Positions 876 through 34,408 of a stretch of DNA of 64,000 nucleotides are shown here, in pieces. The notes below the pieces were generated by a model, which was given only the letters and a program-made list of their open reading frames with translations, ran no database searches and was not told the origin of the DNA. The position numbers were made by a program, and so were the translations under genes. Every line of letters begins with the position of its first letter. Positions within the stretch are counted from its first letter, which is position 1. This DNA comes from a virus. The stretch is from positions 41,157-105,156 of the IMG/VR virus record IMGVR_UViG_3300017987_000005, one strand, 5' to 3'.

Positions 876-1361
876 CTAAACTATATGGACGTCTTCGCTA
901 CCGTCAGATTTTTTGATTGTGATTTTTGCAAGTGGCGTGTTGTCCTTCGGAGGCCCGTCCTCTTTTGGCTCAATGACGGCTCCGGTCTCGGGATACTCTC
1001 CTCCGAGGGTATACTCAAGTTCCGGTCCATCAAATTCCCCGTACGCCATCCCATCCTGATACATTGCTCGCAAAATAGACAGCCACGGCTCCTGGACATA
1101 ATAATAAAACTGGTTCTCATGACGTCCGAGACTCCCGTCAGGATGACGGAGCAGAACAAGGTCAGTACCGAACGCTCCGGCTTTCTTCCTTACTTGGCAG
1201 ACATATCCGACATACATACTCCACCCGCGCTCTCCATGATGATTCCCATGCTGTAACGCGGTTATAACATATCGTCCCGGCTCGGGGTGAGTACTAAGAC
1301 CCACTCCGAACTCAGGGTCTTTTGAGTCAATAATCTTCTTAAGAACTTTTTCGTCCATCAC
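876..1361 (-). CDS. hypothetical phage protein
   Basis: 161-aa ORF, SD AGGAGAG, overlaps upstream gene. Confidence 0.75.
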   Translation of the reverse strand: MMDEKVLKKIIDSKDPEFGVGLSTHPEPGRYVITALQHGNHHGERGWSMYVGYVCQVRKKAGAFGTDLVLLRHPDGSLGRHENQFYYYVQEPWLSILRAMYQDGMAYGEFDGPELEYTLGGEYPETGAVIEPKEDGPPKDNTPLAKITIKKSDGSEDVHIV

Positions 1362-1872
1362 ACTCTCCTAATCCGTTATTAAACCACTTCCCCGATGAAG
1401 GTATCATCCGAGATGCTAATGAATACATAAATACTCTAACTTGTTCGTCAGCTTCTTCTTTTGTACTTGTTCCGAATATTGTCATATTATAACTGCCCCA
1501 CTTTACGCTTTTCAGAAATATCCTAAATACGCAGATGGCATATCCGTCGTGCGGGTCACTGACATACTCTTCCTTCTCATAGTACGGGCATATCACTGCT
1601 ATGCGAAGAATCCCCTGACAAAGGTCAATCTCCTTTATGGAATCAGCTCCGACTACAGCGTGCCCCTCCTCAAGCTCATTATATAACGCGCTAGCCAACT
1701 CGGTCTTCAAGATAGTCTCTATCTTGTCAATTATCCTGAATCCGTGTTCAAGCGCATTATCATCGAGACCGTAAATCGCTTCCTCGATAGCAAATGCTAT
1801 CGATGTCTCAATCTCTCCGAATAAGTCCGAATCCAGGGGTCGCATCCTGCTTCTCCAATTTTCCATTATCAT
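1339..1872 (-). CDS. WFNN-tag protein
   Basis: ends ...GKWFNNGLGECDGRKSS; true start uncertain because of overlap with upstream ORF. Confidence 0.7.
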   Translation of the reverse strand: MIMENWRSRMRPLDSDLFGEIETSIAFAIEEAIYGLDDNALEHGFRIIDKIETILKTELASALYNELEEGHAVVGADSIKEIDLCQGILRIAVICPYYEKEEYVSDPHDGYAICVFRIFLKSVKWGSYNMTIFGTSTKEEADEQVRVFMYSLASRMIPSSGKWFNNGLGECDGRKSS

Positions 1873-2221
1873 ACCATCGCGCTTCCGGCGCGACCATGTT
1901 CTTCAACGACACGTGCGAAATAATATACTTTTTATCAACTCTCCATCTGAATCCGATTCCCGGATTCGTAATCATAACTTTCACATGCGCATCATAAAAT
2001 TCCTCATGCCACTGCGTGCTCGGATACACTATCTGTACTTTAACTGCAACGTGGCACTCGTTCTCAATAACGGGAACTTCACTCAAACGCTTCTCAATGT
2101 GCTTCTTCAGGTTATACTCAGGCTGCTCGTCAGCCCAAACAAAATCCGATAGCTTATCAAATGAAATCTCGTCAAGAATTCGATTCACGTTAGTTTGTAC
2201 TACATCGCTCCAACTCATCAA
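1808..2221 (-). CDS. WFNN-tag protein (WYDN variant)
   Basis: ends ...ARWYDNGKLEK... Confidence 0.7.
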   Translation of the reverse strand: MMSWSDVVQTNVNRILDEISFDKLSDFVWADEQPEYNLKKHIEKRLSEVPVIENECHVAVKVQIVYPSTQWHEEFYDAHVKVMITNPGIGFRWRVDKKYIISHVSLKNMVAPEARWYDNGKLEKQDATPGFGLIRRD

Positions 2222-2583
2222 GAAACTCCGACTCCATTGTCAAACCACGCTCTGCTCATGTCGCATCTGGCAGGGTTATTCACGTCAACAAACGGCGCGG
2301 CACACTGATAGCACAACTCCGATGTCGGACTGTCAGGTCCTCCTCCGGCATAGGCGGACTTGCGAACATAATAATACTCTTCTCTCTTACGTATCTGTGC
2401 TCCACACGAATCGCAAAATTCCTCGTTATCAGATATCACTGGATTAACGATGAAGCTTGTGCGTAATCCAGAGGCGCGTCCGGCAGCAATCTTTTCAAAA
2501 GCCCTTACCGCCGTAGCAACTCTATCCCGGAAAGAAGAGCGTTTCGGGTGCTTTAGATATCGCTTCCACGCTTCTTTACGCAT
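2218..2583 (-). CDS. Zn-finger WFNN-tag protein
   Basis: CDSC...CYQC; ends WFDNGVGVS. Confidence 0.75.
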   Translation of the reverse strand: MRKEAWKRYLKHPKRSSFRDRVATAVRAFEKIAAGRASGLRTSFIVNPVISDNEEFCDSCGAQIRKREEYYYVRKSAYAGGGPDSPTSELCYQCAAPFVDVNNPARCDMSRAWFDNGVGVS

Positions 2584-2585
2584 AC

Positions 2586-2960
2586 TCAGTCCTTCTTATT
2601 ATTAAACCATCCGCGCGTACGAACACGTCCGCACGGAAACTCCATATTCAACTCGTACGTATCTCCAGCTTCCAACACTTGTATCGACACCTTCGCTCGT
2701 AACAGGTTGTTAGCAAGACTTTTCTCGGTGTTATTCCGGCGACTGCACTCAACTGTCCATCTATTAATCTTGTTTCTATTAAACAGCTCCCGACACCTCT
2801 CCTGAAGAATGGTGCGGTAATTCTGTATCGATACGATGTCCGCAGGTTCATATTCGAAATGCTTTCCGGCTTCCATGAACTCGTCCTGGAGATTCTCTAT
2901 AAAACTTTCCGCATCTATCTTGCGCGCTATCTTTTTACGCTTCGAAAACTTAGCCATCAC
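2586..2960 (-). CDS. WFNN-tag protein resembling tail-sheath C-terminal domain
   Basis: VECSRRNNTEKSLANNLLRAKVSIQ resembles the sheath motif V.CD..NNT...I..N.L.A...IQ; ends WFNNKKD. Confidence 0.6.
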   Translation of the reverse strand: MMAKFSKRKKIARKIDAESFIENLQDEFMEAGKHFEYEPADIVSIQNYRTILQERCRELFNRNKINRWTVECSRRNNTEKSLANNLLRAKVSIQVLEAGDTYELNMEFPCGRVRTRGWFNNKKD

Positions 2961-3208
2961 ATCTTCCCGTTATTAAACCACTTTTTCGGACCAGCATGAT
3001 ATTCTGAATAACAGCAATGACACACAACAACGGTGTGAACAATATCGCAATCAACGCGAGGATTGTATGTCGAGTTCTCAACTACGTGCAGCATTTCTCC
3101 GTAACCGATATTACCGGCGCACTTCTGACACGTCGAACCCTCCAAAGCTTCGCACACAATCGAGCTTCGGTCTGCATCCCTTAATAAATATCTGGTATAA
3201 CTGCTCAC
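2957..3208 (-). CDS. Zn-finger WFNN-tag protein
   Basis: CQKC...CHCC; ends WFNNGKM. Confidence 0.75.
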   Translation of the reverse strand: MSSYTRYLLRDADRSSIVCEALEGSTCQKCAGNIGYGEMLHVVENSTYNPRVDCDIVHTVVVCHCCYSEYHAGPKKWFNNGKM

Positions 3209-3756
3209 AAGCTCCTCCGGTTATTAAACCACGTCAAAGGAACGGGTACAACGAACGTCCCGTTCGGGCACTTAAGTCCAAAACGTACTGACTTATACTC
3301 ATCCGTCTCCGTCATCCCCTGGACGACAATCTTCAATACAAAATCTTCGCGAGCTTCCGTATATACGCGGAACTCGTCAATACTTATCCCATAGTATTTC
3401 GAGATAGACTTCTTTAGCGTCCTATCAAACTCAACTGAAGGGTTCTTCACTCCCGTAAACGCCATTCTGTCAAGTATGTCCTGATGCGCGTCGGCGGCTA
3501 ATTTATGCAGAGTGCTTATCAGCGTATCTGATTCAAGCATCTCCTTAAACATTTTCTTTATCGGTCCTCTTGACGCTGCTTTGGACTCTTCTCCGAGTAC
3601 GTCTTCGATAGCTGTCCACGATTCTCCCATGTACATATACATCGTATTAGTCGTAGCGTCGTAATGCAGGTCTCCCATGTTAGGCGACTTGGGAAAACTC
3701 CCGTCCCCATATCCGTACGACGGCCCTTCCTTAGACACACTCACAGCACTTCCCAT
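3205..3756 (-). CDS. WFNN-tag protein with tail-fibre-like PxxGDLHYD..MYMY.G.SW repeat
   Basis: start moved to ATG 3756 (MGSAVSV); ends WFNNRRSL. Confidence 0.65.
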   Translation of the reverse strand: MGSAVSVSKEGPSYGYGDGSFPKSPNMGDLHYDATTNTMYMYMGESWTAIEDVLGEESKAASRGPIKKMFKEMLESDTLISTLHKLAADAHQDILDRMAFTGVKNPSVEFDRTLKKSISKYYGISIDEFRVYTEAREDFVLKIVVQGMTETDEYKSVRFGLKCPNGTFVVPVPLTWFNNRRSL

Positions 3757-4180
3757 TGTTAAACCAATCCTTATTCGGTGCATGGTGATATCTGCGAAGG
3801 TAAATCCGCATCTCATCAGGCTTGTCCCCTATCTCGTTGTCATAGCAGTGTCGGCACAGGTACGCACAATCAGAATCCGTCTCAGCATCGCACTCCACTT
3901 TGACAGCAAACATGTCGGGCTTAAGCGCGTTTCCGCACAACATGCAGAACTCATCCTTCCGCATTACATGACTCTCAGTGTATACGCGGTAATCAGTCTC
4001 CTGCTTCTTATACTTCACTGCGCACAGCGTACAGACTATTTTTGAGCGGGAAGGCCCGCGTCTTTTCCCGATAATGTAAAATCCCGGCATATCACGAATC
4101 GGCACGAGACAATCCATGCACGTATACTGGTCATGGTCTTCTTCCATCCCTTTTGTCATAACGTATACTGGATGGTCCAT
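3731..4180 (-). CDS. double Zn-finger WFNN-tag protein
   Basis: CMDC..CTLC and CMLC..CRHC; ends WFNNGKCCECV. Confidence 0.75.
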   Translation of the reverse strand: MDHPVYVMTKGMEEDHDQYTCMDCLVPIRDMPGFYIIGKRRGPSRSKIVCTLCAVKYKKQETDYRVYTESHVMRKDEFCMLCGNALKPDMFAVKVECDAETDSDCAYLCRHCYDNEIGDKPDEMRIYLRRYHHAPNKDWFNNGKCCECV

Positions 4181-4605
4181 TATCGCTCACTCCTGTTATT
4201 AAACCACGCATTCGGAATAGCCGGCTCCACAGGCGGCTCGACTCTGAGATATTTAGCAGTGCACCATATGCATCTGAATCCGTCTCTCCGAAGGTCCTGC
4301 TTTCCTTTATACACGATGAACATATACTTCGGTGAATCCTCAAGCGGTATTACTTCTCCGCACGCTTGGCACGTCGGCTCTTCCTCAGACGTCCAGTCAG
4401 TCCGCGAAATAGTATACTGTCTGCTGGTCCCTTTATTGAACTCGTCTATCGCTTCACGTATCCGCTGCTGGAATACTTTCCACGGGTCAACAATACTCCA
4501 GGGGTCTCCTCCACAACGGCAGAAGTATCCCTCGTATGTCTGTTCCCCACACTCCGGGCACGGACGAAGCATTCTATCAGTCCCCATCACGCATCCCGTT
4601 ATCAA
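4180..4605 (-). CDS. Zn-finger WFNN-tag protein
   Basis: CPEC..CRC, CQAC..CIWC; ends WFNNRSER. Confidence 0.75.
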   Translation of the reverse strand: MITGCVMGTDRMLRPCPECGEQTYEGYFCRCGGDPWSIVDPWKVFQQRIREAIDEFNKGTSRQYTISRTDWTSEEEPTCQACGEVIPLEDSPKYMFIVYKGKQDLRRDGFRCIWCTAKYLRVEPPVEPAIPNAWFNNRSER

Positions 4606-4768
4606 ACCAAGCTCCCGAACACTTCCGGCGCTTCAGGTTCTCAGCATACACGATGAACTCGGTAAGGGCTTCCTCCCCCATCTCCTTACATTCGTGTATC
4701 GTCAGGTCATACTCAAAAGAAGCAAACGCTGACAATGCGTCGAAATTCACTTTTCGTTTCTTATTCAC
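4577..4768 (-). CDS. small WFNN-tag protein
   Basis: 63 aa, SD GGGAGAG; ends WFDNGMRDGD. Confidence 0.65.
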   Translation of the reverse strand: MNKKRKVNFDALSAFASFEYDLTIHECKEMGEEALTEFIVYAENLKRRKCSGAWFDNGMRDGD

Positions 4769-5193
4769 ACTGCTCTCCCATTATTAAACCAAAACATCTC
4801 CATCGGGACAAACTTAAATTCCCGAAGGACATATCTGCTCTTTCCAAACTCGTCTTTGAACGACACTTTCACAATGACTTTGTTATACAGGCGTCGTCCG
4901 CACATCGCATCATCAACAGCAAGAACAGTAAATCCCTCCGGCAGCGGAGGTCTAATCTCATTATTGAGCTTTATCTTCGCAAGGCTCCGATAACGCTTTG
5001 CATTATGAATCCATCTGTTCCTGCGGACATGTTTATTGACGCGTATCAGAGCAGCATCAATCTGCGCGTTCCAATCCTCATCCCGTACATACATCCCGGC
5101 ATCCATTATTAAACCACAACATCTTCTCCGGAACAAACTTGAACTTCCGTATGGCAAGTCGTCTGCTTCCGGCATCGTTCGTAAATCTGACAA
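4765..5193 (-). CDS. WFNN-tag protein, paralogue of 5078..5437
   Basis: ...REFKFVPMEMFWFNNGRAV; true start probably near 5100 (MDAG/MYVR). Confidence 0.65.
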   Translation of the reverse strand: MSDLRTMPEADDLPYGSSSLFRRRCCGLIMDAGMYVRDEDWNAQIDAALIRVNKHVRRNRWIHNAKRYRSLAKIKLNNEIRPPLPEGFTVLAVDDAMCGRRLYNKVIVKVSFKDEFGKSRYVLREFKFVPMEMFWFNNGRAV

Positions 5194-5410
5194 CTACGCT
5201 TACAGCAACATACGGGAAATCCGGAGTCGGCTGGATATCCGAGGTTTGTATGGTCGCGTCCCGGATACGCTCGGCATCAATAGTATCCCTCATCTCCTCC
5301 TTCACGAGATTCGCATACTCGAATGAGGCTTTCATACGCTTCTCCCGGCAGATGCGCTGATGCGCTCGGGTAATAGCGACATTAATCAGTGACAGCACGC
5401 TCTGGCTCAT
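5078..5410 (-). CDS. WFNN-tag protein, paralogue of 4765..5193
   Basis: ...RKFKFVPEKMLWFNNGC; start MSQSV at 5410 with SD GAGGAG. Confidence 0.7.
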   Translation of the reverse strand: MSQSVLSLINVAITRAHQRICREKRMKASFEYANLVKEEMRDTIDAERIRDATIQTSDIQPTPDFPYVAVSVVVRFTNDAGSRRLAIRKFKFVPEKMLWFNNGCRDVCTG

Positions 5411-5750
5411 CCCGCAACTCCTCACATCCATTATCAAACCAAGCTCCCGGAAAGTACGTCGGGTATAAATGGCGGTATATCACGCTCTCACTCTCATCGT
5501 TTTCCATGTACAGCAGCTCAACGCGAATATGCGGCTGAGGCACATTCTTGCTCTTGGTCATCTGGATACAGTCAACGCTCCATCCGTGGGGATAGTTCCA
5601 TCCCTTCACAAGCATGTTAATCATTGTCCGTATGGCTTTCTTATACGTCGTGGGGCGTCTTGACTCCCCCACACGTATCACCCACGCATGCGCTTGATTG
5701 ATAGCGTACTGCAACTGTCCGCGTATGGTTCCTCGTATCGTCATGTTCAC
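5382..5750 (-). CDS. WFNN-tag protein, first gene of operon
   Basis: SD GGAGAG, promoter directly upstream; ends WFDNGCEE... Confidence 0.75.
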   Translation of the reverse strand: MNMTIRGTIRGQLQYAINQAHAWVIRVGESRRPTTYKKAIRTMINMLVKGWNYPHGWSVDCIQMTKSKNVPQPHIRVELLYMENDESESVIYRHLYPTYFPGAWFDNGCEELRDEPERAVTD

Positions 5751-5769: not shown

Positions 5770-5797
5770 ATTATAGCGTATAAAATACATTTGTCAA
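5770..5797 (-). promoter_or_regulatory. sigma70-type promoter of WFNN operon
   Basis: TTGACA-16-TATAAT. Confidence 0.8.
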
Positions 5798-6500
5798 GTA
5801 AAAAATGAGAAAACTTCCCATATCTTAATCTTAAAAAAGGAGACGCTCGCGATTTTAGGGCAAAATCACGTGTGCGCACAGGCGCGCGCGAAAATGGGAG
5901 GATTATGAGGGGGCAGACAGGGCAGAACAGGCATCCTGGCGCGCTGACCGGGACTGTACGGGGCTGAAAGGATGGTCGAAGGGGTAAGAGACGGCTGGAG
6001 CGGACACGGGCTTGACGGGGCAGTAAGAGGGCTGGCGTGATACAAGGGTGTTGCCGGCTCCTTTACGGAGTGATAAGAAGAGCTTTTCAGCGTGGGTGGT
6101 TCCCGGAATTTTTTGCCGGGTACGGGTGGGGGGTATTACCCCCTTTGGGACGGGCATTGGACGGGCATTGTTTCTTATGGGTTCTTATAGGGTAGTATGG
6201 GGGGACATGGGGGTGGTTGTAAGGTTCCCGACTTCTACGGCAGCATCCCCGCCGCCCTTGACAGCGTTACCTTTCGTTAAAAGCGTGATTTCACCCTTTT
6301 TGACCTCAGCCTATAGAGGTACGTGGAACGTAAAACGGGGGGTGGGGGTATCTCGGTTTTGAGGAAGCATTATTTTTTATTCTGCATTGCTTCCCCCCTT
6401 CTTCCCCTTCCCCTGCATACGGGGGGAAGGGGTTCCGGTGCGGGTTGTTTGGTTTTATCCTCTGATATTGTCCGGCGCTTCCCCCTGAATAATTACGGGG

Positions 6501-6767
6501 TCAAGTACAATCCGGCTTTCCCTGAAGGCTTCCCCCCGTTGCTGTCTGTAGTCTTTTGATATAGTCGGGTGAATGGCGGTCAAGGCTTTTCCGTATATGG
6601 TCGGCTTTGTCGATTTCTCCCGATACTGCAAGAGTGCAGGCGCGCGCGGTTAGTTCGTGATATTCTTCCATAGTGTACGGCTTGACAGGCTGATACAATC
6701 CCGATTTTTCGAGAGTGTCGGCAATTATTCCCATTGCTTCCGGCTTCGTGTAAGTGTCTTTTTTCAT
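6501..6767 (-). CDS. hypothetical early protein
   Basis: start MKKDTYT after leader AGGAGACAAGACAATG. Confidence 0.7.
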   Translation of the reverse strand: MKKDTYTKPEAMGIIADTLEKSGLYQPVKPYTMEEYHELTARACTLAVSGEIDKADHIRKSLDRHSPDYIKRLQTATGGSLQGKPDCT

Positions 6768-6843
6768 TGTCTTGTCTCCTGTTCCTGTAGTGAGAAGGAA
6801 AGAGGGGGGAAGGGGTTTTAATTCCCCTTCCCCCTTCTGCGGT

Positions 6844-7449
6844 TTATTTCTTTTCCGGCTTTTCTGACAGGCTTGTAAGTGCAAAGTGATTCCATGTCTT
6901 ACAATCCTGTGTGCAGGTGCTTTTCACGTTTGAAAAAAAGTACTTGGCGCAAGTATTCAGATTTCCGGCTTTGTTGTCGCTGTTCCTTCCCTTCCATCTG
7001 ATGACGGTTCCGGCTTTGAGTTTCTTTCCCAAAGTCTTTTTAATATAGTCGATAGCTTCCCCCCTGCGCTTTTTCGGGCTGTCGTATTCTGTGACATTCA
7101 TTTCCTGACAGGCTTTGAAGCTGTCAAGGGTTATACAGTGCTTTCCTTCTGTCTCACTGTCTGCAAGGTGTATTCCTCTGTTCTTGGCGCTTTTCCTGTA
7201 GCTACTCCCTTCCTGCTGATAAAGGTTATAGCTTTCCTGTACTTCGCTGGAAAATCCGGTTTTTGATTTCTTGGCTTTGTCTGCGGTCTGCTGTGCAAGG
7301 CTGATTCTTACGGCTTTGTCTTTTCCGGCTTTGGCTTTTTTGTCTGTCTTTTTCATTGTCTTGTCTCCTGTGTTAAAAGAAAAAATATTGTTAGTGGTTT
7401 CCGGCTCGGTTCCTTTTTCCGGCTCGGTTCTAAAGTCTCTTTTTTTCAT
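6844..7449 (-). CDS. Lys-rich early protein, paralogue of 10449..10937 (alternative start 7356)
   Basis: two in-frame ATGs, each behind a GGAGAYAAGACA leader; shares KRR..I.YI..LG...WxGRN.D.K.GN.N.CAKYFFSN.KS with its paralogue. Confidence 0.75.
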   Translation of the reverse strand: MKKRDFRTEPEKGTEPETTNNIFSFNTGDKTMKKTDKKAKAGKDKAVRISLAQQTADKAKKSKTGFSSEVQESYNLYQQEGSSYRKSAKNRGIHLADSETEGKHCITLDSFKACQEMNVTEYDSPKKRRGEAIDYIKKTLGKKLKAGTVIRWKGRNSDNKAGNLNTCAKYFFSNVKSTCTQDCKTWNHFALTSLSEKPEKK

Positions 7450-7702
7450 TGTCTTATCTCCTTGTCTATATATATTATGAAACGAAAAACGGCTTTTTTC
7501 CAACTATTCCAAAAAAACTTTGGCTTATAAAGTCTTTATTATCAATAGTTTATGAAGGTGATATATTTTATTTATAAGGTATGATTTTTCAATGGTTTAT
7601 GTCGGTTCCGATTTTCCGGGCAGGTTCCGGGCAGGTCACATGTGATTGAAAAATTTCGGAGCCCGAACATCCACCACCAACGCCACACCCATGCCGAGCG
7701 CA

Positions 7703-12582: not shown

Positions 12583-12610
12583 ATTATAGCATATAAATAT
12601 AATAAGTCAA
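12583..12610 (-). promoter_or_regulatory. sigma70-type promoter
   Basis: TTGACT-16-TG.TATAAT. Confidence 0.75.
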
Positions 12611-14067: not shown

Positions 14068-14113
14068 GTCCTTCTCCTTCAAAATACGGCAACTGTTGTT
14101 GAACCACGCAGGC

Positions 14114-14358: not shown

Positions 14359-14386
14359 ATTATATCATATAATAGGTATAAGTCAA
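14359..14386 (-). promoter_or_regulatory. sigma70-type promoter
   Basis: TTGACT-16-TG.TATAAT. Confidence 0.75.
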
Positions 14387-18031: not shown

Positions 18032-18059
18032 ATTATATCATATAAACATCATAAGTCAA
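18032..18059 (-). promoter_or_regulatory. sigma70-type promoter
   Basis: TTGACT-16-TG.TATAAT. Confidence 0.75.
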
Positions 18060-22786: not shown

Positions 22787-22814
22787 ATTATAGCATAAAA
22801 ACTTGATTTGTCAA
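22787..22814 (-). promoter_or_regulatory. sigma70-type promoter
   Basis: TTGACA-16-TG.TATAAT. Confidence 0.8.
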
Positions 22815-22827
22815 GGACAAAATCAGA

Positions 22828-23208
22828 TTATTTCTTACCTCGTTGGCTTGGGCGACCATTGTTAAACCACTGGGTCGGAGCCTTGAACAGGTCTTCGTGG
22901 TGGTTGCGGTATCTCATGCAGACATCGCCGGCGGCAGCAAATATAGTTGGTCGAGAAGAAGAGAATGACCTCCACACTGCTTTGTGAGTCCCTGCCTTGA
23001 TAGCACTGTCAATAAGCAATCTGAAATTATCATCAACCGTCCCCCCAACATAATGTAAGTCGTCACGGTACAGCCATTTCCCCACTGCTGCCTGCTTTAT
23101 GGTAGAATGATATACTTCAACAATACCATGTTCAGGTCTTGCTATGTAAACTGTACACTGGTGTGTATGCCTACTCAACAGGACGCAGGCTTGATAGCTT
23201 TTTTCCAT
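22828..23208 (-). CDS. WFNN-tag protein
   Basis: ends ...TQWFNNGRPSQRGKK. Confidence 0.7.
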   Translation of the reverse strand: MEKSYQACVLLSRHTHQCTVYIARPEHGIVEVYHSTIKQAAVGKWLYRDDLHYVGGTVDDNFRLLIDSAIKAGTHKAVWRSFSSSRPTIFAAAGDVCMRYRNHHEDLFKAPTQWFNNGRPSQRGKK

Positions 23209-23560
23209 TGTTAAACCACTTTCCTTCTCTTACTGCTTCTGCCCGAAGTTCCCGATGTTTCGCAGCTACCTTTCTCTTGAAATAATCCCTTGCGCATATC
23301 GCTGCCCGCAGCATCGGGTGGTCAAATTCGTTAAAAATATCATACACCATGTGCTCATATTCTTTCCTATCCGCATAATCATGCGCTACCTCGTTAGCGA
23401 ACTCATGCAACGTACATCCATGCCTTGCAGCATCTCCGACATCGTACATCGCTACCTTGTTAAAACAATTCTGTGCAAACGAATGCAAAGGACTTTCATA
23501 AACAGTAATACTATGGTCACCCTGGACGATAAGGATTCCCCACTCCCCCTGTGGGCGCAT
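23171..23560 (-). CDS. WFNN-tag protein
   Basis: ends ...GKWFNNGKKLSSLRPVE; start uncertain. Confidence 0.65.
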   Translation of the reverse strand: MRPQGEWGILIVQGDHSITVYESPLHSFAQNCFNKVAMYDVGDAARHGCTLHEFANEVAHDYADRKEYEHMVYDIFNEFDHPMLRAAICARDYFKRKVAAKHRELRAEAVREGKWFNNGKKLSSLRPVE

Positions 23561-23579
23561 CTTTACCCAAAATCTTCCT

Positions 23580-23951
23580 CTACTTGGCATTGTTAAACCA
23601 CCCTTTCATCGGTTCAGGTCTGGTAACCTTAAATAATCTCTCGCCAACTTCCAACATCTCAGTCAACATCTCCGCTGCCTTCTTAGGAAGTGTGGTTCGT
23701 GTCCCTGCAACAGTTCCCATCCTACCGCAGCGGCGATGCGTCTCAAAGTATTTAACGGTCTGTTCATACGAATACCTGTCCCGTACATAAAAATCCTCTA
23801 TCGGAGTCTCACGAAGAATCTTCGCCCCGGACTTCGTATAAGGTACTCTGAAAACTCGGGCTACGCGCCCACCCTTACGTCTCAGCGGAGCAACTACAAG
23901 AAGCGTGTCTACGCGCTTACCATTACTCTCTTTGAAAACGTGGGCAATCAT
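23580..23951 (-). CDS. WFNN-tag protein
   Basis: ends ...MKGWFNNAK. Confidence 0.75.
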   Translation of the reverse strand: MIAHVFKESNGKRVDTLLVVAPLRRKGGRVARVFRVPYTKSGAKILRETPIEDFYVRDRYSYEQTVKYFETHRRCGRMGTVAGTRTTLPKKAAEMLTEMLEVGERLFKVTRPEPMKGWFNNAK

Positions 23952-23954
23952 CGC

Positions 23955-24323
23955 CTACTCCTTTGCATTGTTAAACCATCCAGCAAACACTGGCTCTGCC
24001 GGCGTTGGTTCGGGCTTTGATACATAATGACTTCCATACTTTGCCCATTTCACTGCTTTCTCCTGCAACCACTCGTGCTCCCCTTGGTCGCTGAATATCA
24101 AAACGTAATCATCCCCCTTCTTCCGCCACCCGCGCAACTTCTTCTCCAGTTGCGTATCAAACGAATGGGTATAATAAATCTGATTACTGAAGTGACCTCT
24201 GCTCAGCGTCTCATTACGTCCGTAGAAACAATCAACACCGCCTCCCCCAGGTCTTTCCATAAGGAAGTAATACTTATTGTGTCTACCGGTCGTACAAACG
24301 TAAAGTTCTGCTCTGACTTCCAT
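23955..24323 (-). CDS. WFNN-tag protein with WGR-like N-terminus
   Basis: HNKYYFL...YGRN...QLEKKLRG..K.DYV resembles WGR; ends FAGWFNNAKE. Confidence 0.7.
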   Translation of the reverse strand: MEVRAELYVCTTGRHNKYYFLMERPGGGGVDCFYGRNETLSRGHFSNQIYYTHSFDTQLEKKLRGWRKKGDDYVLIFSDQGEHEWLQEKAVKWAKYGSHYVSKPEPTPAEPVFAGWFNNAKE

Positions 24324-24849: not shown

Positions 24850-24877
24850 ATTATATCATATAAATGATATTTGTCAA
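24850..24877 (-). promoter_or_regulatory. sigma70-type promoter
   Basis: TTGACA-16-TG.TATAAT. Confidence 0.8.
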
Positions 24878-24895
24878 GGACTATCTGAAACAACT

Positions 24896-25372
24896 TCACG
24901 CCCGCACGGGCACGTTCTCAAACCACGGCTTCTTGGGTTTCCAATAGTACCACTCTCCCATCGGGGCATCGTGATGCGTCACTCTCACCTTAAGTCCGTC
25001 TCCGTCCTCCCACACCCACCAGTGGTAATCCCCTCCGTTTCCGAGGCATTTGCTGATGAGCGCCTTTCCGTCCGTTATGTCCTCAAAGTCAGATTCGGCA
25101 GAACGGTGCTGCCATCCCATGTTGCGTCCTTCGGCATGCCACCGTCCGTCCGGGCACAGTCTCCTGACAACATCAGTCAGATTAGCCAGCTCCGATTCAT
25201 AGCAGAAATCAAACAGGGCACCGTCCATTTGAATTTCCTGCCAGATATCGTCCTCATCCGGTTTCTCATCATAACCGAAGTCTTCCCAATTCTCAAGACG
25301 ATATTCAACCTCACCCTTCATTATCTCGTAAGTGTCCCAACTGGCTACAAGTTTTTCAGTTTCTTCAACCAT
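24896..25372 (-). CDS. hypothetical protein (degenerate tag KPWFEN)
   Basis: HHDAPMG motif; ends KPWFENVPVRA. Confidence 0.75.
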   Translation of the reverse strand: MVEETEKLVASWDTYEIMKGEVEYRLENWEDFGYDEKPDEDDIWQEIQMDGALFDFCYESELANLTDVVRRLCPDGRWHAEGRNMGWQHRSAESDFEDITDGKALISKCLGNGGDYHWWVWEDGDGLKVRVTHHDAPMGEWYYWKPKKPWFENVPVRA

Positions 25373-26759: not shown

Positions 26760-27131
26760 TTAACTCTTTCGGTTGTTAAACCACCTCGCGGGCTTGGCAG
26801 TCTGTGGCTGTGGGTACTTCCCGAGCAAATCCTCCAGGGCCTCGGCTGCTTCTTTCGGAATTTCGTCCAGGAACCCCTGGATAACTCCGTAGTGCTTGTA
26901 CCCCAGGCGCAACAGTCTGTCAATATATCCACTATAGTCGTGCTTCTTACTGATATAAAGACTTCTCGCACTTGCCTCGCGAAGTCGGTGGACTGATGCT
27001 CGGTTAAGCTGCCCTCCCGCAACGCGTGCTCTGAATGTCGGCTTATCCTCACCCTTCTTGTGCTTCTTCATAACGACAGAGAAGTCGGCAGGTGTCTTGC
27101 CGTTATCCCGAATATAAATATGTGCTCTCAT
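26760..27131 (-). CDS. WFNN-tag protein
   Basis: ends ...KPARWFNNRKS. Confidence 0.75.
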   Translation of the reverse strand: MRAHIYIRDNGKTPADFSVVMKKHKKGEDKPTFRARVAGGQLNRASVHRLREASARSLYISKKHDYSGYIDRLLRLGYKHYGVIQGFLDEIPKEAAEALEDLLGKYPQPQTAKPARWFNNRKS

Positions 27132-28505: not shown

Positions 28506-28533
28506 ATTATAGCATATAAATGTAATATGTCAA
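28506..28533 (-). promoter_or_regulatory. sigma70-type promoter
   Basis: TTGACA-16-TG.TATAAT. Confidence 0.8.
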
Positions 28534-30618: not shown

Positions 30619-33063
30619 TCACATCCCCGCCTTTCGCACACTTTTTAACCCCTTCAAGAAGCCGGATATCTTCGTGTACGCAGTCTTAACAAGTTCGCTC
30701 ACCTTATCAACTTTGCAATGGTTCGTATAGTAACGACCGACACTTGAGTACTGAACTCCGATGCAGAACAGATTGATTTCGCCGCTATCCTCTATCTGTC
30801 GGGCAACCTGTATCAAATCTTCATCGGGATTGTATCGAGCATACCCCGCCGGCGCTCCATCGCAGATTACGATTAACAGTTTCTTGCTTTCCTTGCGCTC
30901 TGCCAATCTCCTGGCGGCCCATCGTAAACTCTCACCGTCAAGGTTCTGATAAAGCAGTACCTCGGGCAGACTTCCCATCGCACCTTTGGTCTTATGGTCT
31001 AATTTCCGTTCAAACGGTTTTACGACATAGCCGAGCAGTGGGCTCACTCTGGTGTACCCTTCTTTGTAGTGATGGCTCCCGCCTCCGACTTGGGTGAATC
31101 CGAGAACTTCAAACGGTACCCCGACTAAGTTCAATGTTTCCGACAGAATAATAGCAACATCCGTTGCCGTCTGTATCTTGCTTCCCGACATCGAACCGGA
31201 GCAGTCAACGAGCAGAGTAACCGCAGCATCAAGTTCAATCTTCCGCCGCTTCTGCTTGAACAAATCTTCTTCTTTGAATGCGACCCTGAATAAATCCCTG
31301 TCATTAATCGTACCCTGCTTCTGTCGCTTTGTCCACTTCTTAGGATTGCCGAGCAAGTCCATCAGCAGTCTCCGCCGGAGCACATTAACATCGCCCCTCA
31401 GTTCTTGGACATTCTTAGTGTATCGCTCGAACCCCCGCTCCCTCGCGTCCGCCGCATGCGTATGCGGATATACTTTTCCCAACGCAGCCGGGTCTCTCTC
31501 AGCAACAAGGTCTACCTCCCGGTCGTCATTGATGTAAGGTATCACAGTTTCCCCACGATAGCCGGAATCAACTTTGTCAGTAATAATCAGTTTGCTAACC
31601 TTATCATAAAGCACGCTTTCAGCAGTCACGCCCCCATCTGCTCCACTGCTCTGCTGAGCAATGCCTCCGATAGTTTCATCAAGTTTATCTTTAACTTCCT
31701 GCCGCTTCTCCTCGATGCTTTTTTCTTCTTCCTCTACCCCGTCTTCTTCACTCTCCTCACCATCAGGACTCCCGTCGCCATCACCGTCCCCTTCTTCGGC
31801 TTCCTCCTCACCCTCGTCATCATCAAAATCCTCATCCTCGCCATCATCATCCCAACCATCTTCCTCATAATCCTCTTCGCCCCACTCGTCCCAATCCTTT
31901 TCCTCTTCACCTTCCTCTTCGTCCTCTACCTCCCCTTCATCATCTGCTCCACTATCAGAACCTTCTCCATCAGAGGATGAATCCTCGGCCTCGTCTCCGT
32001 CTTCGCCTTCAGCAGAATCAGAAGTTCCCTCAGCCTCTTCAGTTTCTTCACTATCATCTCCGCCTCCTCCGGATTCATCTTCCCCTTCGCCGGCTCCTTC
32101 ATCTTCGCCCTCCTCACTGCAATCACTTGCAGAACTATCGTCACCTTTATCTTTTCTCATATCAATTTCTTCAACTTCCCCCGGACCGGAACTATCCTTT
32201 TCCTGCTCCCCCTCACCTTTACCTTCCCCGTCCTCGGATTTGTCGCTCTTGCTCTTTTTCCCCTTGCCTCCCTTTGAGGACTTCCCGCCAGACTCAGAAC
32301 TCTCACTATCCCCATCAGCCTCAGAAGAACTCCCCTGTCCCTGACCGGACTGGCTTTCCCCTTCCTGTCCTTCCTCACCCTCTCCCCCATACGGGTTCGG
32401 CACTTCGACCTGACTGATATAGTCCTTCAAAATTTCAGTCATTTCCATTGAGAGGTTAACTACCTCCTCAGTACTGCGAACTGACTTCGCCCGCTCCAAC
32501 TGCTCCTTCACCATGTCCACGAATTTCGGGTACATCGGGCTGACCTCTTCTCCACGACTGTCAATATACTCAATATCGTCCGGCCTGTGGGTTCTTGTCA
32601 TACGCATACCGAGCAGAAGCAGGGCACGTTCGTTATCATCGCAACCCTCCTTGTCTCGGATATTACTGCAAATGTCCTCTTTATAGAGCGCCTGATTGTG
32701 AATGAAGTCAAGGTTTCGGGCTACGCCGAGAGCCTTCTCCCCCATCAGCTTATCGACCCTGGCATCTTCCATTGCATTACTGAAAAAATGGACAATCCCC
32801 GCGCCGATTATTTTCTTCCGTTTGTAAACACCCATGTCGGTGTCATTAACGTGACCGGACTCATGGTCAACAAGACCTCGAAGCATATTGATTGCTTCAT
32901 CACTCAAGTCCGCCGGAAGTGGTGGCAGATGTATGATACCATGCTTGTTAGGCTCAGTATATGCTCCGCCCTTCGTGTCGTAAAGGATACGAACACGTTT
33001 GCCGGCACAGACACGTGCAGCCGCTTGCTGTCCGACTTCTAACATTCTTGCTAACTTACTCAT
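30619..33063 (-). CDS. cobT: CobT-like vWA (MIDAS) protein with N-terminal HExxH domain and long acidic linker
   Basis: HESGH; NAMEDARVD; E/D/G/S-rich middle; LLVDCSGSM, EVLGFT, DGESL.WA..RL, LIVICDGAP. Confidence 0.8.
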   Translation of the reverse strand: MSKLARMLEVGQQAAARVCAGKRVRILYDTKGGAYTEPNKHGIIHLPPLPADLSDEAINMLRGLVDHESGHVNDTDMGVYKRKKIIGAGIVHFFSNAMEDARVDKLMGEKALGVARNLDFIHNQALYKEDICSNIRDKEGCDDNERALLLLGMRMTRTHRPDDIEYIDSRGEEVSPMYPKFVDMVKEQLERAKSVRSTEEVVNLSMEMTEILKDYISQVEVPNPYGGEGEEGQEGESQSGQGQGSSSEADGDSESSESGGKSSKGGKGKKSKSDKSEDGEGKGEGEQEKDSSGPGEVEEIDMRKDKGDDSSASDCSEEGEDEGAGEGEDESGGGGDDSEETEEAEGTSDSAEGEDGDEAEDSSSDGEGSDSGADDEGEVEDEEEGEEEKDWDEWGEEDYEEDGWDDDGEDEDFDDDEGEEEAEEGDGDGDGSPDGEESEEDGVEEEEKSIEEKRQEVKDKLDETIGGIAQQSSGADGGVTAESVLYDKVSKLIITDKVDSGYRGETVIPYINDDREVDLVAERDPAALGKVYPHTHAADARERGFERYTKNVQELRGDVNVLRRRLLMDLLGNPKKWTKRQKQGTINDRDLFRVAFKEEDLFKQKRRKIELDAAVTLLVDCSGSMSGSKIQTATDVAIILSETLNLVGVPFEVLGFTQVGGGSHHYKEGYTRVSPLLGYVVKPFERKLDHKTKGAMGSLPEVLLYQNLDGESLRWAARRLAERKESKKLLIVICDGAPAGYARYNPDEDLIQVARQIEDSGEINLFCIGVQYSSVGRYYTNHCKVDKVSELVKTAYTKISGFLKGLKSVRKAGM

Positions 33064-33111
33064 TTGTTCACCCTCCGAATATATGAGTATCTTAACTAAA
33101 TATACAATTAT

Positions 33112-33139
33112 ATTATATCATATAATTGCAATAAGTCAA
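33112..33139 (-). promoter_or_regulatory. sigma70-type promoter
   Basis: TTGACT-16-TG.TATAAT. Confidence 0.75.
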
Positions 33140-33226
33140 GCAGATTTTCAAACAACTTCTCACCCTTAGTTAAGGGGCGGAGGTCTGCATCCCCCGCCCC
33201 TTCATTTGCGAAGAACGGAGGGTGAC

Positions 33227-34408
33227 CTATTCTTCGCTCGTGCCCATCCTGTCGCTCATATCAATCGGGTCTTTAGCTATCCGCTGATAAATCTCAGCAA
33301 GCGCCATCGCGTCCTCGTCCGTGCATTTATTCAGCACCGCGACTTTGAACGCATCGACCATCGTCCATCCCTTCCCGATAAGCTTCGCCGTGGCGATACT
33401 TTTCCGAAGGCTGAATGTAGTCATAATATCCTGACCGAAGCTCGCACGTGCAGCCGTGGCAATCTTCGTTAATGATTTCGCTTGCGCCTGTCCGATTCCG
33501 GTTCTCCTGCGGAGCACCTTTATCTCGTCTGACTGTGACAGGTAATTGATGCGGAACACTCCCAACCATCTATCAAGGAAGGCTTCGTCAAGTATCTGCC
33601 GACTCCGATAGATGTCTGCTTGGTCACCTCGTCCTGCGGTATTCGAGGTGGCGACCACTGCGAATCCTGGAGCCGCTTTGACGCGCTCACCGTGGTTCTT
33701 GGAAACAATGAGGTCTTTACCTTCCAGAACTCGTTGGAGTACGAACAGAATTCCCTGCTCCGCCACGTCCAACTCGTCAATCTGAAGCACCAATCCCTCA
33801 CGCATTGACTGCGTAAGCGGACCATCGGTAAATACGGTTTCCATCACACCGTCACCGTTGTCTTTCAGACTGATGTGTCCGATGAAGTCATCGACCGTGG
33901 TTTCCTCGGTCATATTGAATGGAAGTACTTTCCGACCGAGCTTGTGTTTGATAACACGTTCAAGCAGGTCTGTTTTCCCCGTGCCGGCAGGTCCGATTAA
34001 GAGAACGGGAAACCCCTCCTCAATCAGTTCGACTACCTTGGGGGTGCATTCGGGATAGATATAGAAATCCGAATCGGCATCGCCGTCGAACTCCTTACCT
34101 TCCCTGAGTGTGGGTGTCGGCTGACCCTTAATCCCTTTATAGGATTTAGGAGTAACCTTGACATTGAGAGTACTCTCAGTCACCCACGCAAGTTTCACAC
34201 CGGGAATCGTAAGGTCGGTTATTTCAGAAATGACGTCTGCCTTGAGACCCTTCTCACGCAAATCATCATCCGCGACCTCGAAATCGGTGCACCCGACTTC
34301 AGCGATAAACTCGTGCAGAACGAGCTTCGCCTCTTCCTTACGCATCTGGTCGATTGCCGACTCAGACTTTGTGGCAAATCCTGCCAGTTTTTTGTCGTCC
34401 ATCTTCAC
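33227..34408 (-). CDS. cobS: CobS/CbbQ/MoxR-type AAA+ ATPase
   Basis: GPAGTGKT Walker A, LQIDELD Walker B, ATSNT.G.GD, LDEAFLDRW, FSLRK; next to vWA partner. Confidence 0.85.
   Translation of the reverse strand: MKMDDKKLAGFATKSESAIDQMRKEEAKLVLHEFIAEVGCTDFEVADDDLREKGLKADVISEITDLTIPGVKLAWVTESTLNVKVTPKSYKGIKGQPTPTLREGKEFDGDADSDFYIYPECTPKVVELIEEGFPVLLIGPAGTGKTDLLERVIKHKLGRKVLPFNMTEETTVDDFIGHISLKDNGDGVMETVFTDGPLTQSMREGLVLQIDELDVAEQGILFVLQRVLEGKDLIVSKNHGERVKAAPGFAVVATSNTAGRGDQADIYRSRQILDEAFLDRWLGVFRINYLSQSDEIKVLRRRTGIGQAQAKSLTKIATAARASFGQDIMTTFSLRKSIATAKLIGKGWTMVDAFKVAVLNKCTDEDAMALAEIYQRIAKDPIDMSDRMGTSEE

Follow-up and report, generated by a model that had tools for sequence, protein, structure and literature searches.

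Short W-F-x-N tags on about forty small proteins of an uncultured myovirus: a putative docking motif

In the 64-kb stretch of viral DNA analysed here (the window), which covers bases 41157-105156 of one contig of 183,648 bp, the tetrapeptide W-[FY]-[ND]-N was found in frame on 12 of 12 consecutive minus-strand genes between positions 1339 and 5750, located 3-18 residues ahead of the stop codon. The same tag recurs in other operons of this genome, and about 40 of about 310 genes carry it when the variants WFEN and WFSN are counted. Its properties suggest, at roughly even confidence, a short linear motif for docking, which one shared, putative partner would read in trans. Positions are those of the window unless the genome or another contig is named.

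Distribution of the tag and its carriers

The cluster of twelve tagged genes encodes proteins of 57-192 amino acids (aa), and the same 12 genes were called independently in public annotations of identical contigs from other assemblies. A first-pass annotation of this DNA had described both the C-terminal tag on twelve consecutive genes, here seen with all copies in frame, and a promoter at 5770-5797, where a perfect TTGACA-16-TATAAT sequence was found. The extent given there (1339-5750) was understated, because the transcription unit runs below 1339 and tags occur genome-wide. No convincing terminator was found inside the cluster. Its features, in the order of transcription, are as follows.

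5770-5797, minus strand: sigma-70-like consensus promoter, TTGACA-16-TATAAT (12 of 12 positions match), heading the tagged operon
5382-5744, minus strand: gene 12, 120 aa; WFDN at 5430-5441, 15 residues before the stop
5078-5410, minus strand: gene 11, 85-110 aa depending on the start, paralogue of gene 10; WFNN at 5105-5116
4765-5094, minus strand: gene 10, 109 aa; WFNN at 4780-4791
4577-4768, minus strand: gene 9, 63 aa; WFDN at 4598-4609
4180-4605, minus strand: gene 8, 135-141 aa, CxxC zinc-ribbon-like; WFNN at 4195-4206
3731-4180, minus strand: gene 7, 149 aa, several CxxC pairs; WFNN at 3755-3766
3205-3783, minus strand: gene 6, 183-192 aa; WFNN at 3220-3231
2957-3208, minus strand: gene 5, 83 aa, CxxC; WFNN at 2969-2980
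2586-2957, minus strand: gene 4, 123 aa; WFNN at 2598-2609
2218-2583, minus strand: gene 3, 121 aa, CxxC; WFDN at 2236-2247
1808-2218, minus strand: gene 2, 136 aa; WYDN at 1865-1876, with an 18-residue tail that overlaps the start of gene 1
1339-1845, minus strand: gene 1, 168 aa; WFNN at 1375-1386

The unit transcribed from 5797 extends past 1339 into two untagged genes and three further tagged genes, beyond which lie the gene of a GT29-like glycosyltransferase, another tagged gene and the gene of a 75-aa protein (L002:3199-3426, genome 39199-39426). The latter directly follows a C-terminally tagged gene and carries the motif at its own N-terminus (MSVDRKYIWFNNRF...).

The 183,648-bp genome contains 39 copies of the motif. 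Each is on the minus strand and follows the frame of a long open reading frame (ORF) there, whereas the plus strand has none; 18 of them lie within the window. In 34 of the 39 cases the motif sits 1-18 residues before a stop, and WFEN or WFSN was found at no fewer than 5 additional C-termini. Amino acid composition predicts 0.33 copies per proteome and 0.045 in the last 25 residues. The genome-wide comparison of C-termini with a shuffled background, proposed in the first-pass annotation, gave 30 tagged tails, while 2000 per-protein shuffles of the same gene set averaged 0.048 and never exceeded 2.

Five of the 39 copies are not C-terminal: they occupy residues 9-12 of the 75-aa protein, residues 6-9 of another protein, a site about 31 residues into one ORF, the middle of a 178-aa protein, and positions 14095-14106. 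The last of these, the sole copy out of frame with its upstream gene, has a KP-x-W context like that of real tags and could be either a tag severed by a frameshift or an N-terminal copy. Five tagged genes are directly followed by a promoter (genome 16578, 28054, 64014, 66052 and 67928). Further tagged features of the window are listed below.

14095-14106, minus strand: WFNN copy in the frame of the downstream ORF (KPAWFNNS) and not in that of the gene just upstream, which stops about 8 nt before it
22828-24323, minus strand: second cluster, four consecutive tagged genes; tags at 22858, 23207, 23589 and 23967
24896-25372, minus strand: gene with the variant tag WFEN at 24914-24925, promoter directly after it
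26760-27131, minus strand: tagged gene, WFNN at 26772-26783, last before a promoter and without an adjacent downstream ribosome-binding site

Tagged proteins range from 57 to 203 aa. When the tag was removed from 34 of them, all-vs-all BLAST detected only two related pairs, namely genes 10 and 11 (E-value 7e-7) and the genes at 23580 and 26760; the earlier description of the proteins as mostly unrelated holds. Profile-profile comparison of three orthologue families by hhalign aligned only the 13 tag columns or nothing, at probabilities of 1-13%, and no Pfam or PHROG family was assigned to the tagged proteins beyond weak zinc-ribbon matches. Since BLAST, Pfam/PHROG and profile comparison reveal no shared body, the carriers are, as judged from sequence, unrelated ORFans. 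Several CxxC pairs are present in some carriers and absent from most, and the isoelectric point is the same for tagged and untagged small proteins. For the protein of gene 1 (168 aa; 177 aa in the search), no homologue outside this phage was found among 5.8 billion proteins. A profile of the genome-33638 family, compared with 1.84 billion representative sequences, matched only two members of the clade and, weakly, the Ig-like repeats of a 1441-aa surface protein that contains TWFDNE; the weak match was judged to be due to chance.

Sheath or gp25-like domains, suggested earlier for tagged proteins, are not supported: there was one PHROG tail-sheath match (E-value 2e-4), and no tagged protein resembles the sheath of this phage. 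An AlphaFold2 model of one tagged family, built from three sequences, had a mean pLDDT of 50 with the tail as low-confidence coil, and look-alikes of two tagged proteins in the ESM Atlas gave nothing usable.

The phage has a contractile tail; sheath, portal, baseplate wedge and tape measure genes were identified by PHROGs, as in a myovirus. Nearly all long ORFs are on the minus strand, together with 28 near-identical sigma-70-like promoters (one more is on the plus strand) of the consensus TTGAC[AT], 16 nt, TATAAT, in most of which TATG precedes the -10 hexamer. No such promoter was found at 83-142 kb of the genome, which is the structural block. All tagged genes lie within sigma-70-like promoter units and none in the structural block; judging by promoter type and position, the carriers are probably early or middle accessory proteins.

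5770-5797, 12583-12610, 14359-14386, 18032-18059, 22787-22814, 24850-24877 and 28506-28533, minus strand: examples of sigma-70-like promoters in the window

Other genes of the genome encode a DnaB helicase, a family-A DNA polymerase, a primase-like protein, a RecA-like protein, the RNA-repair proteins RtcB and RlaP, NAD-salvage enzymes and two small radical-SAM proteins without a SPASM domain. A Ro/TROVE-like protein is apparently encoded as well, as suggested solely by a C-terminus shared with the TROVE gene of the relative L058. A CobT-like von Willebrand factor A (vWA) protein of 814 aa is encoded beside a CobS/MoxR-like AAA+ ATPase of 393 aa (30619-34408), and this pair is also present in a distant relative (L055:2394-5659), two genes upstream of a tagged gene. 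The glycosyltransferase gene amid the largest tagged operon encodes a compact GT29 (sialyltransferase-family) protein of 186 aa (Pfam E-value 1.7e-18; genome 39776-40336, L002:3776-4336), which occupies the same place in the relative L051 (L051:250-816). GT29 is an unusual family in a phage. Just upstream of the promoter of the tagged operon, the ORF-poor region 6500-7500 has the peptide GDKTMKK in three ORF translations, a recurrence that points to a repeated RNA leader or a short DNA repeat.

Selection on the peptide and conservation in relatives

Among the 39 tags, nucleotide positions 1-5, 10 and 11 were scored as invariant and position 8 as invariant in 38; the changes fall on the wobble positions, on base 1 of codon 3 (N/D/E/S) and, once each, on positions 5 and 8. 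The codons AAT and AAC for Asn-4 occur at 24:15, matching the genome usage of 0.62:0.38. Because every copy is read in frame, the variation does not go beyond wobble bases and residue 3, and orthologues use different codons, selection acts on the peptide and not on the 12-mer. The first-pass annotation had come to the same view from the synonymous variation; Asn-4 wobble at genome usage and the recoded orthologues now agree with it.

The residues around the tag show two regularities. Pro is 3.4-fold enriched in the 8 residues ahead of Trp (p 1e-9). After the tag, Gly is present in 20 of 34 cases and Lys or Arg next in 23 of 34, the codons being mostly GGA, GGG, AGG and AAG, which form the Shine-Dalgarno sequence of the next gene; Gly follows only 1 of the 5 tags without a following gene. 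These Gly, Arg and Lys residues are thus, at least partly, the Shine-Dalgarno sequence of the next gene read as codons. The tag itself is not a signal for the ribosome-binding site of the next gene, because tags precede promoters, occur at N-termini and in one orthologue lie 36 residues from the end; it is independent both of a downstream ribosome-binding site and of a fixed distance to the stop.

Searches of GenBank phages (n=50,697) by megablast and tblastn with 12 kb of DNA, a 1037-aa protein and a 203-aa tagged protein gave no match, and protein-based scans of IMG/VR gave no useful relative. Apart from chance or unrelated matches, the sole product of an IMG/VR scan for a two-copy DNA pattern was a fragment of the same phage (L025). 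All contigs carrying the gene of the tagged 177-aa protein were 100% identical to this genome, with no population variation among them. Short contigs of relatives were reached via DnaB (77-47% identical), and further contigs via their own proteins; the contigs come from sediment and seawater metagenomes. In these relatives, with GC contents of 0.31-0.45, orthologues keep W-F-x-N, where x is N, D, E, S or C, and TTC is freely used for the Phe of the tag. Orthologous tags compare as follows.

WFDNGEK here: WFENGAK and WFCNGAK in relatives
WFDNGRAVSI here: WFNNGRGILIP in a relative
WFNNSKVEAYA here: WFNNHKVEAYA in a relative
WFNNQRTRQ here: WFNNQKV in a relative
WFENGICKSKI here: WFNNGIGG in a relative
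WFSNG here: WFSNG in a relative, with 36 more residues after it

In the phage with a GC content of 0.31, the tag WYNNGRE stands directly before the stop. The N-terminal motif of the 75-aa protein is kept in two relatives as WFNNRY and WFENRF (L051:1173-1400 and L054:1251-1478, respectively). Tagged genes were gained and lost at the same loci between relatives.

An apparently concerted change of the motif was seen in one sister lineage (L057/L094; DnaB 52% identical), where 4 of the 6 genes downstream of DnaB end in W-[FY]-[DN]-G-[GH]-x-x-stop in the place of the tag.

L057/L094 variants, an asterisk marking the stop: WFDGGTI*, WFNGHTL*, WYNGGDE* and WFDGGKEK..

In relatives at a greater distance (portal identity about 42%; three contigs, 111-157 kb long, from bins of metagenome-assembled genomes), W-F-x-N is not in excess, and a crude scan of them detected no other obvious shared tail 3-mer. 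Since these phages carry no such tag, any reader of it is not a universal host hub.

The DnaB C-termini of several relatives have an acidic run with an aromatic residue near the end (for example, ...EDEDEDAFPW and ...YSEESVDF), a second, separate tail motif that recalls the tail of the T7 helicase.

L051:3977-5284, L054:3944-5275, L055:10001-11290, L056:733-2025 and L057:1243-2535: DnaB genes with acidic tails

The portal gene of one relative (L049:9748-12588; 61% identical) contains a LAGLIDADG intein-like insertion (PF14528) and encodes 946 aa vs 607 aa here. Unrelated low-GC phages of IMG/VR (L029:74-1979, also L012, L018 and L030) contain tandem arrays of 4-5 paralogues of about 125 aa that start with MYSKGISWIDDCRIP, have GRFPANLLVSDD in common and end with DKWFDNLIDV; they surfaced only through the WFDN pattern, and we take them to resemble repeated C-terminal pieces of a DNA methyltransferase.

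The docking reading and its alternatives

The tag has the signature of a short linear motif, because W, F and N are fixed, the context is Pro-rich and linker-like, the carriers are unrelated, the motif occurs at either terminus, is conserved in the clade and changed jointly in one lineage. Reading in trans is strengthened by this apparent joint change to W-F-[DN]-G-G. In the proposed mechanism, the consensus, approximately P-x(1-4)-[AG]-W-F-x-N-(G)-(K/R), would be displayed on an exposed, mostly C-terminal tail of about 40 unrelated small proteins expressed from the host-type (sigma-70-like) promoters of the phage. The putative reader, encoded by the host or by the phage, would hold the Trp-Phe pair in a pocket and contact the invariant Asn, so that all tagged proteins would be docked to, or handled by, the same machine. 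Since the carriers appear to be early or middle accessory proteins, none of them near the head genes, handling within the cell is favoured over loading into the virion. The preferred version is common handling of early proteins by a shared chaperone, by an unfoldase or protease (timed stability) or at an intracellular sorting site. Both the existence of a single reader and the effect of docking are inferred.

The CobT-like/MoxR-like pair would, by analogy, be a candidate reader, because the MIDAS site of vWA proteins working with MoxR-type AAA+ ATPases binds extended or unstructured peptide (Kaur et al. 2020, PMC7159879). Prediction of a complex between the CobT-like vWA domain (with Mg) and the 63-aa tagged protein was undecided (median 0.26, mark 0.34) and counts neither for nor against binding.

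Several points weigh against the docking motif. No reader was found, and the single complex prediction was uninformative. The concerted variant is known from one short lineage represented by two overlapping contigs, with six genes in about 5 kb, and the distant relatives lack the tag. The structure model is too poor to show an exposed tail. The Phe codon of the 38 Phe-containing tags is TTT in 33 and TTC in 5, with an expected TTT frequency of 0.58-0.61 (p ~4e-4), which hints at recent spread by descent or at an added nucleotide-level constraint in this genome. Finally, the phage is uncultured and binding is a prediction from sequence.

Targeting to the virion or to a compartment, where the tag would direct proteins either to the capsid, for injection, or to a compartment built by the phage, is unlikely. 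There is a precedent in the internal proteins of T4, where a capsid targeting sequence is a shared address peptide on unrelated proteins; the genome is large (184 kb), the tail is contractile, and many carriers are small ORFans of the kind acting early after injection. Against this, all carriers are in host-type promoter units, and neither the 83-142 kb structural block nor its immediate surroundings contain any; the tag is at the C-terminus and is not followed by a residue resembling a protease site, and about 40 cargo species would be unprecedented. As for a compartment, no nucleus-shell or tubulin-like gene was seen among about 50 larger proteins scanned, in which no search was aimed at such genes. 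Of the earlier proposal of a shared docking or targeting signal, the general part remains the best reading, strengthened by the concerted W-F-[DN]-G-G variant, and the analogy with virion packaging is not supported, given the promoter units and the position outside the structural block.

A structural role without any common reader has a similarly low probability. Here, highly diverged paralogues or repeated captures of a 3'-end would keep a structural cap, formed by W-F packing and an Asn-Gly turn, for folding or self-association. Many carriers are similar in size (about 95-160 aa), two paralogous pairs exist, the TTT bias suggests some identity by descent, and N-G is a favoured beta-turn. However, the bodies span 57-203 aa, with or without CxxC zinc ribbons, and have nothing in common at the profile level; the body similarity expected of diverged paralogues was limited to 2 BLAST pairs among 34, and hhalign aligned only the tag. 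The tag is also present at N-termini and in a linker, with 1-36 residues after it, and the concerted N-to-G change in the sister lineage is hard to fit with independent intramolecular roles.

It is improbable, to a marked degree, that the tag is a substrate site for a phage modifying enzyme acting on the invariant Asn or Trp, for which the GT29-like glycosyltransferase would be one candidate. The GT29 gene has tagged genes on both sides, its place is unchanged in the L051 lineage, and the invariant residue is Asn. This link, however, amounts to gene neighbourhood within an operon whose members mostly carry tags in any case; there is no N-x-S/T sequon in the tag, we know of no GT29 enzyme that modifies Asn, and both radical-SAM proteins are small and devoid of a SPASM domain.

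A nascent peptide acting in cis, in which W-F-x-N slows or arrests the ribosome near the stop and couples translation to the next gene, is very unlikely. The tag is usually just 5' of the next Shine-Dalgarno sequence, the commonest distance to the stop is 3 codons (12 of 39), and arrest peptides with a key Trp near the stop exist, such as TnaC. That the next ribosome-binding site is close, however, is no more than expected of a C-terminal tag where the genes of an operon are tightly packed. Fixed spacing in a leader ORF, as in arrest peptides of the TnaC/SecM type, was not found: the spacing is 1-18 codons (36 in an orthologue) and the carriers are of full size, while five tags precede promoters without a nearby ribosome-binding site, and N-terminal copies are conserved.

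A nucleotide-level element, either an RNA/DNA signal or a recombination site at cassette boundaries, would agree with the AU-rich core, the TTT bias and the gain and loss of tagged genes at the same loci, but is already close to refuted, as the 39 copies occupy one frame and one strand and vary only at residue 3 and in wobble bases, phages of GC 0.31-0.45 encode the peptide with other codons, the one copy that does not share the frame of its upstream gene nevertheless falls within an open one, and conservation of the 12-mer regardless of frame or codon position, the outcome named beforehand as contrary to a peptide, was not seen.

Significance and comparison with known systems

A shared docking peptide is a known principle; the scale here, a tag on about 13% of the genes of a phage, is unusual. 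Examination of the literature on shared C-terminal motifs and early phage proteins revealed no description of a W-F-x-N tag, in line with the first-pass annotation, which had recognised no described motif of this kind, and no paper was found on a tag of this scale. No part of a phage genome is less well understood than its small early ORFans. Through the shared tag, about 40 of them fall into a single functional class, for which a 10-residue bait becomes available as an experimental handle. A hub protein is also implied, through which much of the early programme could be controlled in one step by the phage or by a host defence. It is possible, though we regard it as the less probable outcome, that this clade of uncultured marine and sediment myoviruses has a proteome-wide address system, with the tag on about 1/8 of genes, all of them early or middle accessory genes, a single dedicated reader and co-evolution of tag and reader, including the shift to W-F-[DN]-G-G in the sister lineage. 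Such a reader might represent a novel type of hub, of phage or host origin, that sorts proteins, destroys them on schedule or activates them, and the address system, if real, would point to a general undescribed principle for how large phages manage early proteins. If the reader were found, the tag could serve as a portable engineering signal and as a marker for accessory genes in metagenomic phages.

Four known systems are comparable with the tag. Peptide capture by the vWA MIDAS site differs in that residue 3 of the tag is not consistently acidic.

The capsid targeting sequence of T4 (IPI-III, Alt) is N-terminal, comprises about 10 residues, is cleaved by the prohead protease and is carried by a handful of virion proteins. 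The W-F-x-N tag is likewise a short peptide on otherwise unrelated proteins of one phage and would be an address for one partner. Unlike the T4 sequence, it is mostly C-terminal (34 of 39), is carried by about 40 proteins of early-type units and has no link to head genes; a cleavage site of the (L/I)-x-E type is absent both before and after it.

Bacterial degrons include C-terminal ClpXP tags of the ssrA type and aromatic-rich Lon degrons, for example, the 'beta20' peptide of beta-galactosidase, containing A-W-F. Similar to degrons, the tag is a short terminal peptide that could confer a common fate on many proteins, and its Ala-Trp-Phe core resembles aromatic degrons of the Lon type. Tags of the ssrA type must be at the extreme C-terminus, whereas the tag here is 1-36 residues from the end, and to our knowledge no invariant Asn is present in ssrA-type or Lon-type degrons.

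C-terminal docking tails are represented by those of T4 gp43, gp33 and gp55 on the gp45 clamp and by the acidic tails, ending in Phe, of T7 gp2.5 and gp4 on the polymerase. Such tails are found on two or three proteins of replication or transcription; acidic or hydrophobic in character, they form the very C-terminus, in contrast to the neutral-basic, K/R-flanked tag on many ORFans, which lies 1-18 residues from the end (36 in an orthologue); in the W-F-x-N clade, DnaB has a separate acidic tail of its own. The tag and these tails have in common a short C-terminal motif with aromatic residues on unrelated proteins, and in the T4 and T7 systems one hub reads the tails.

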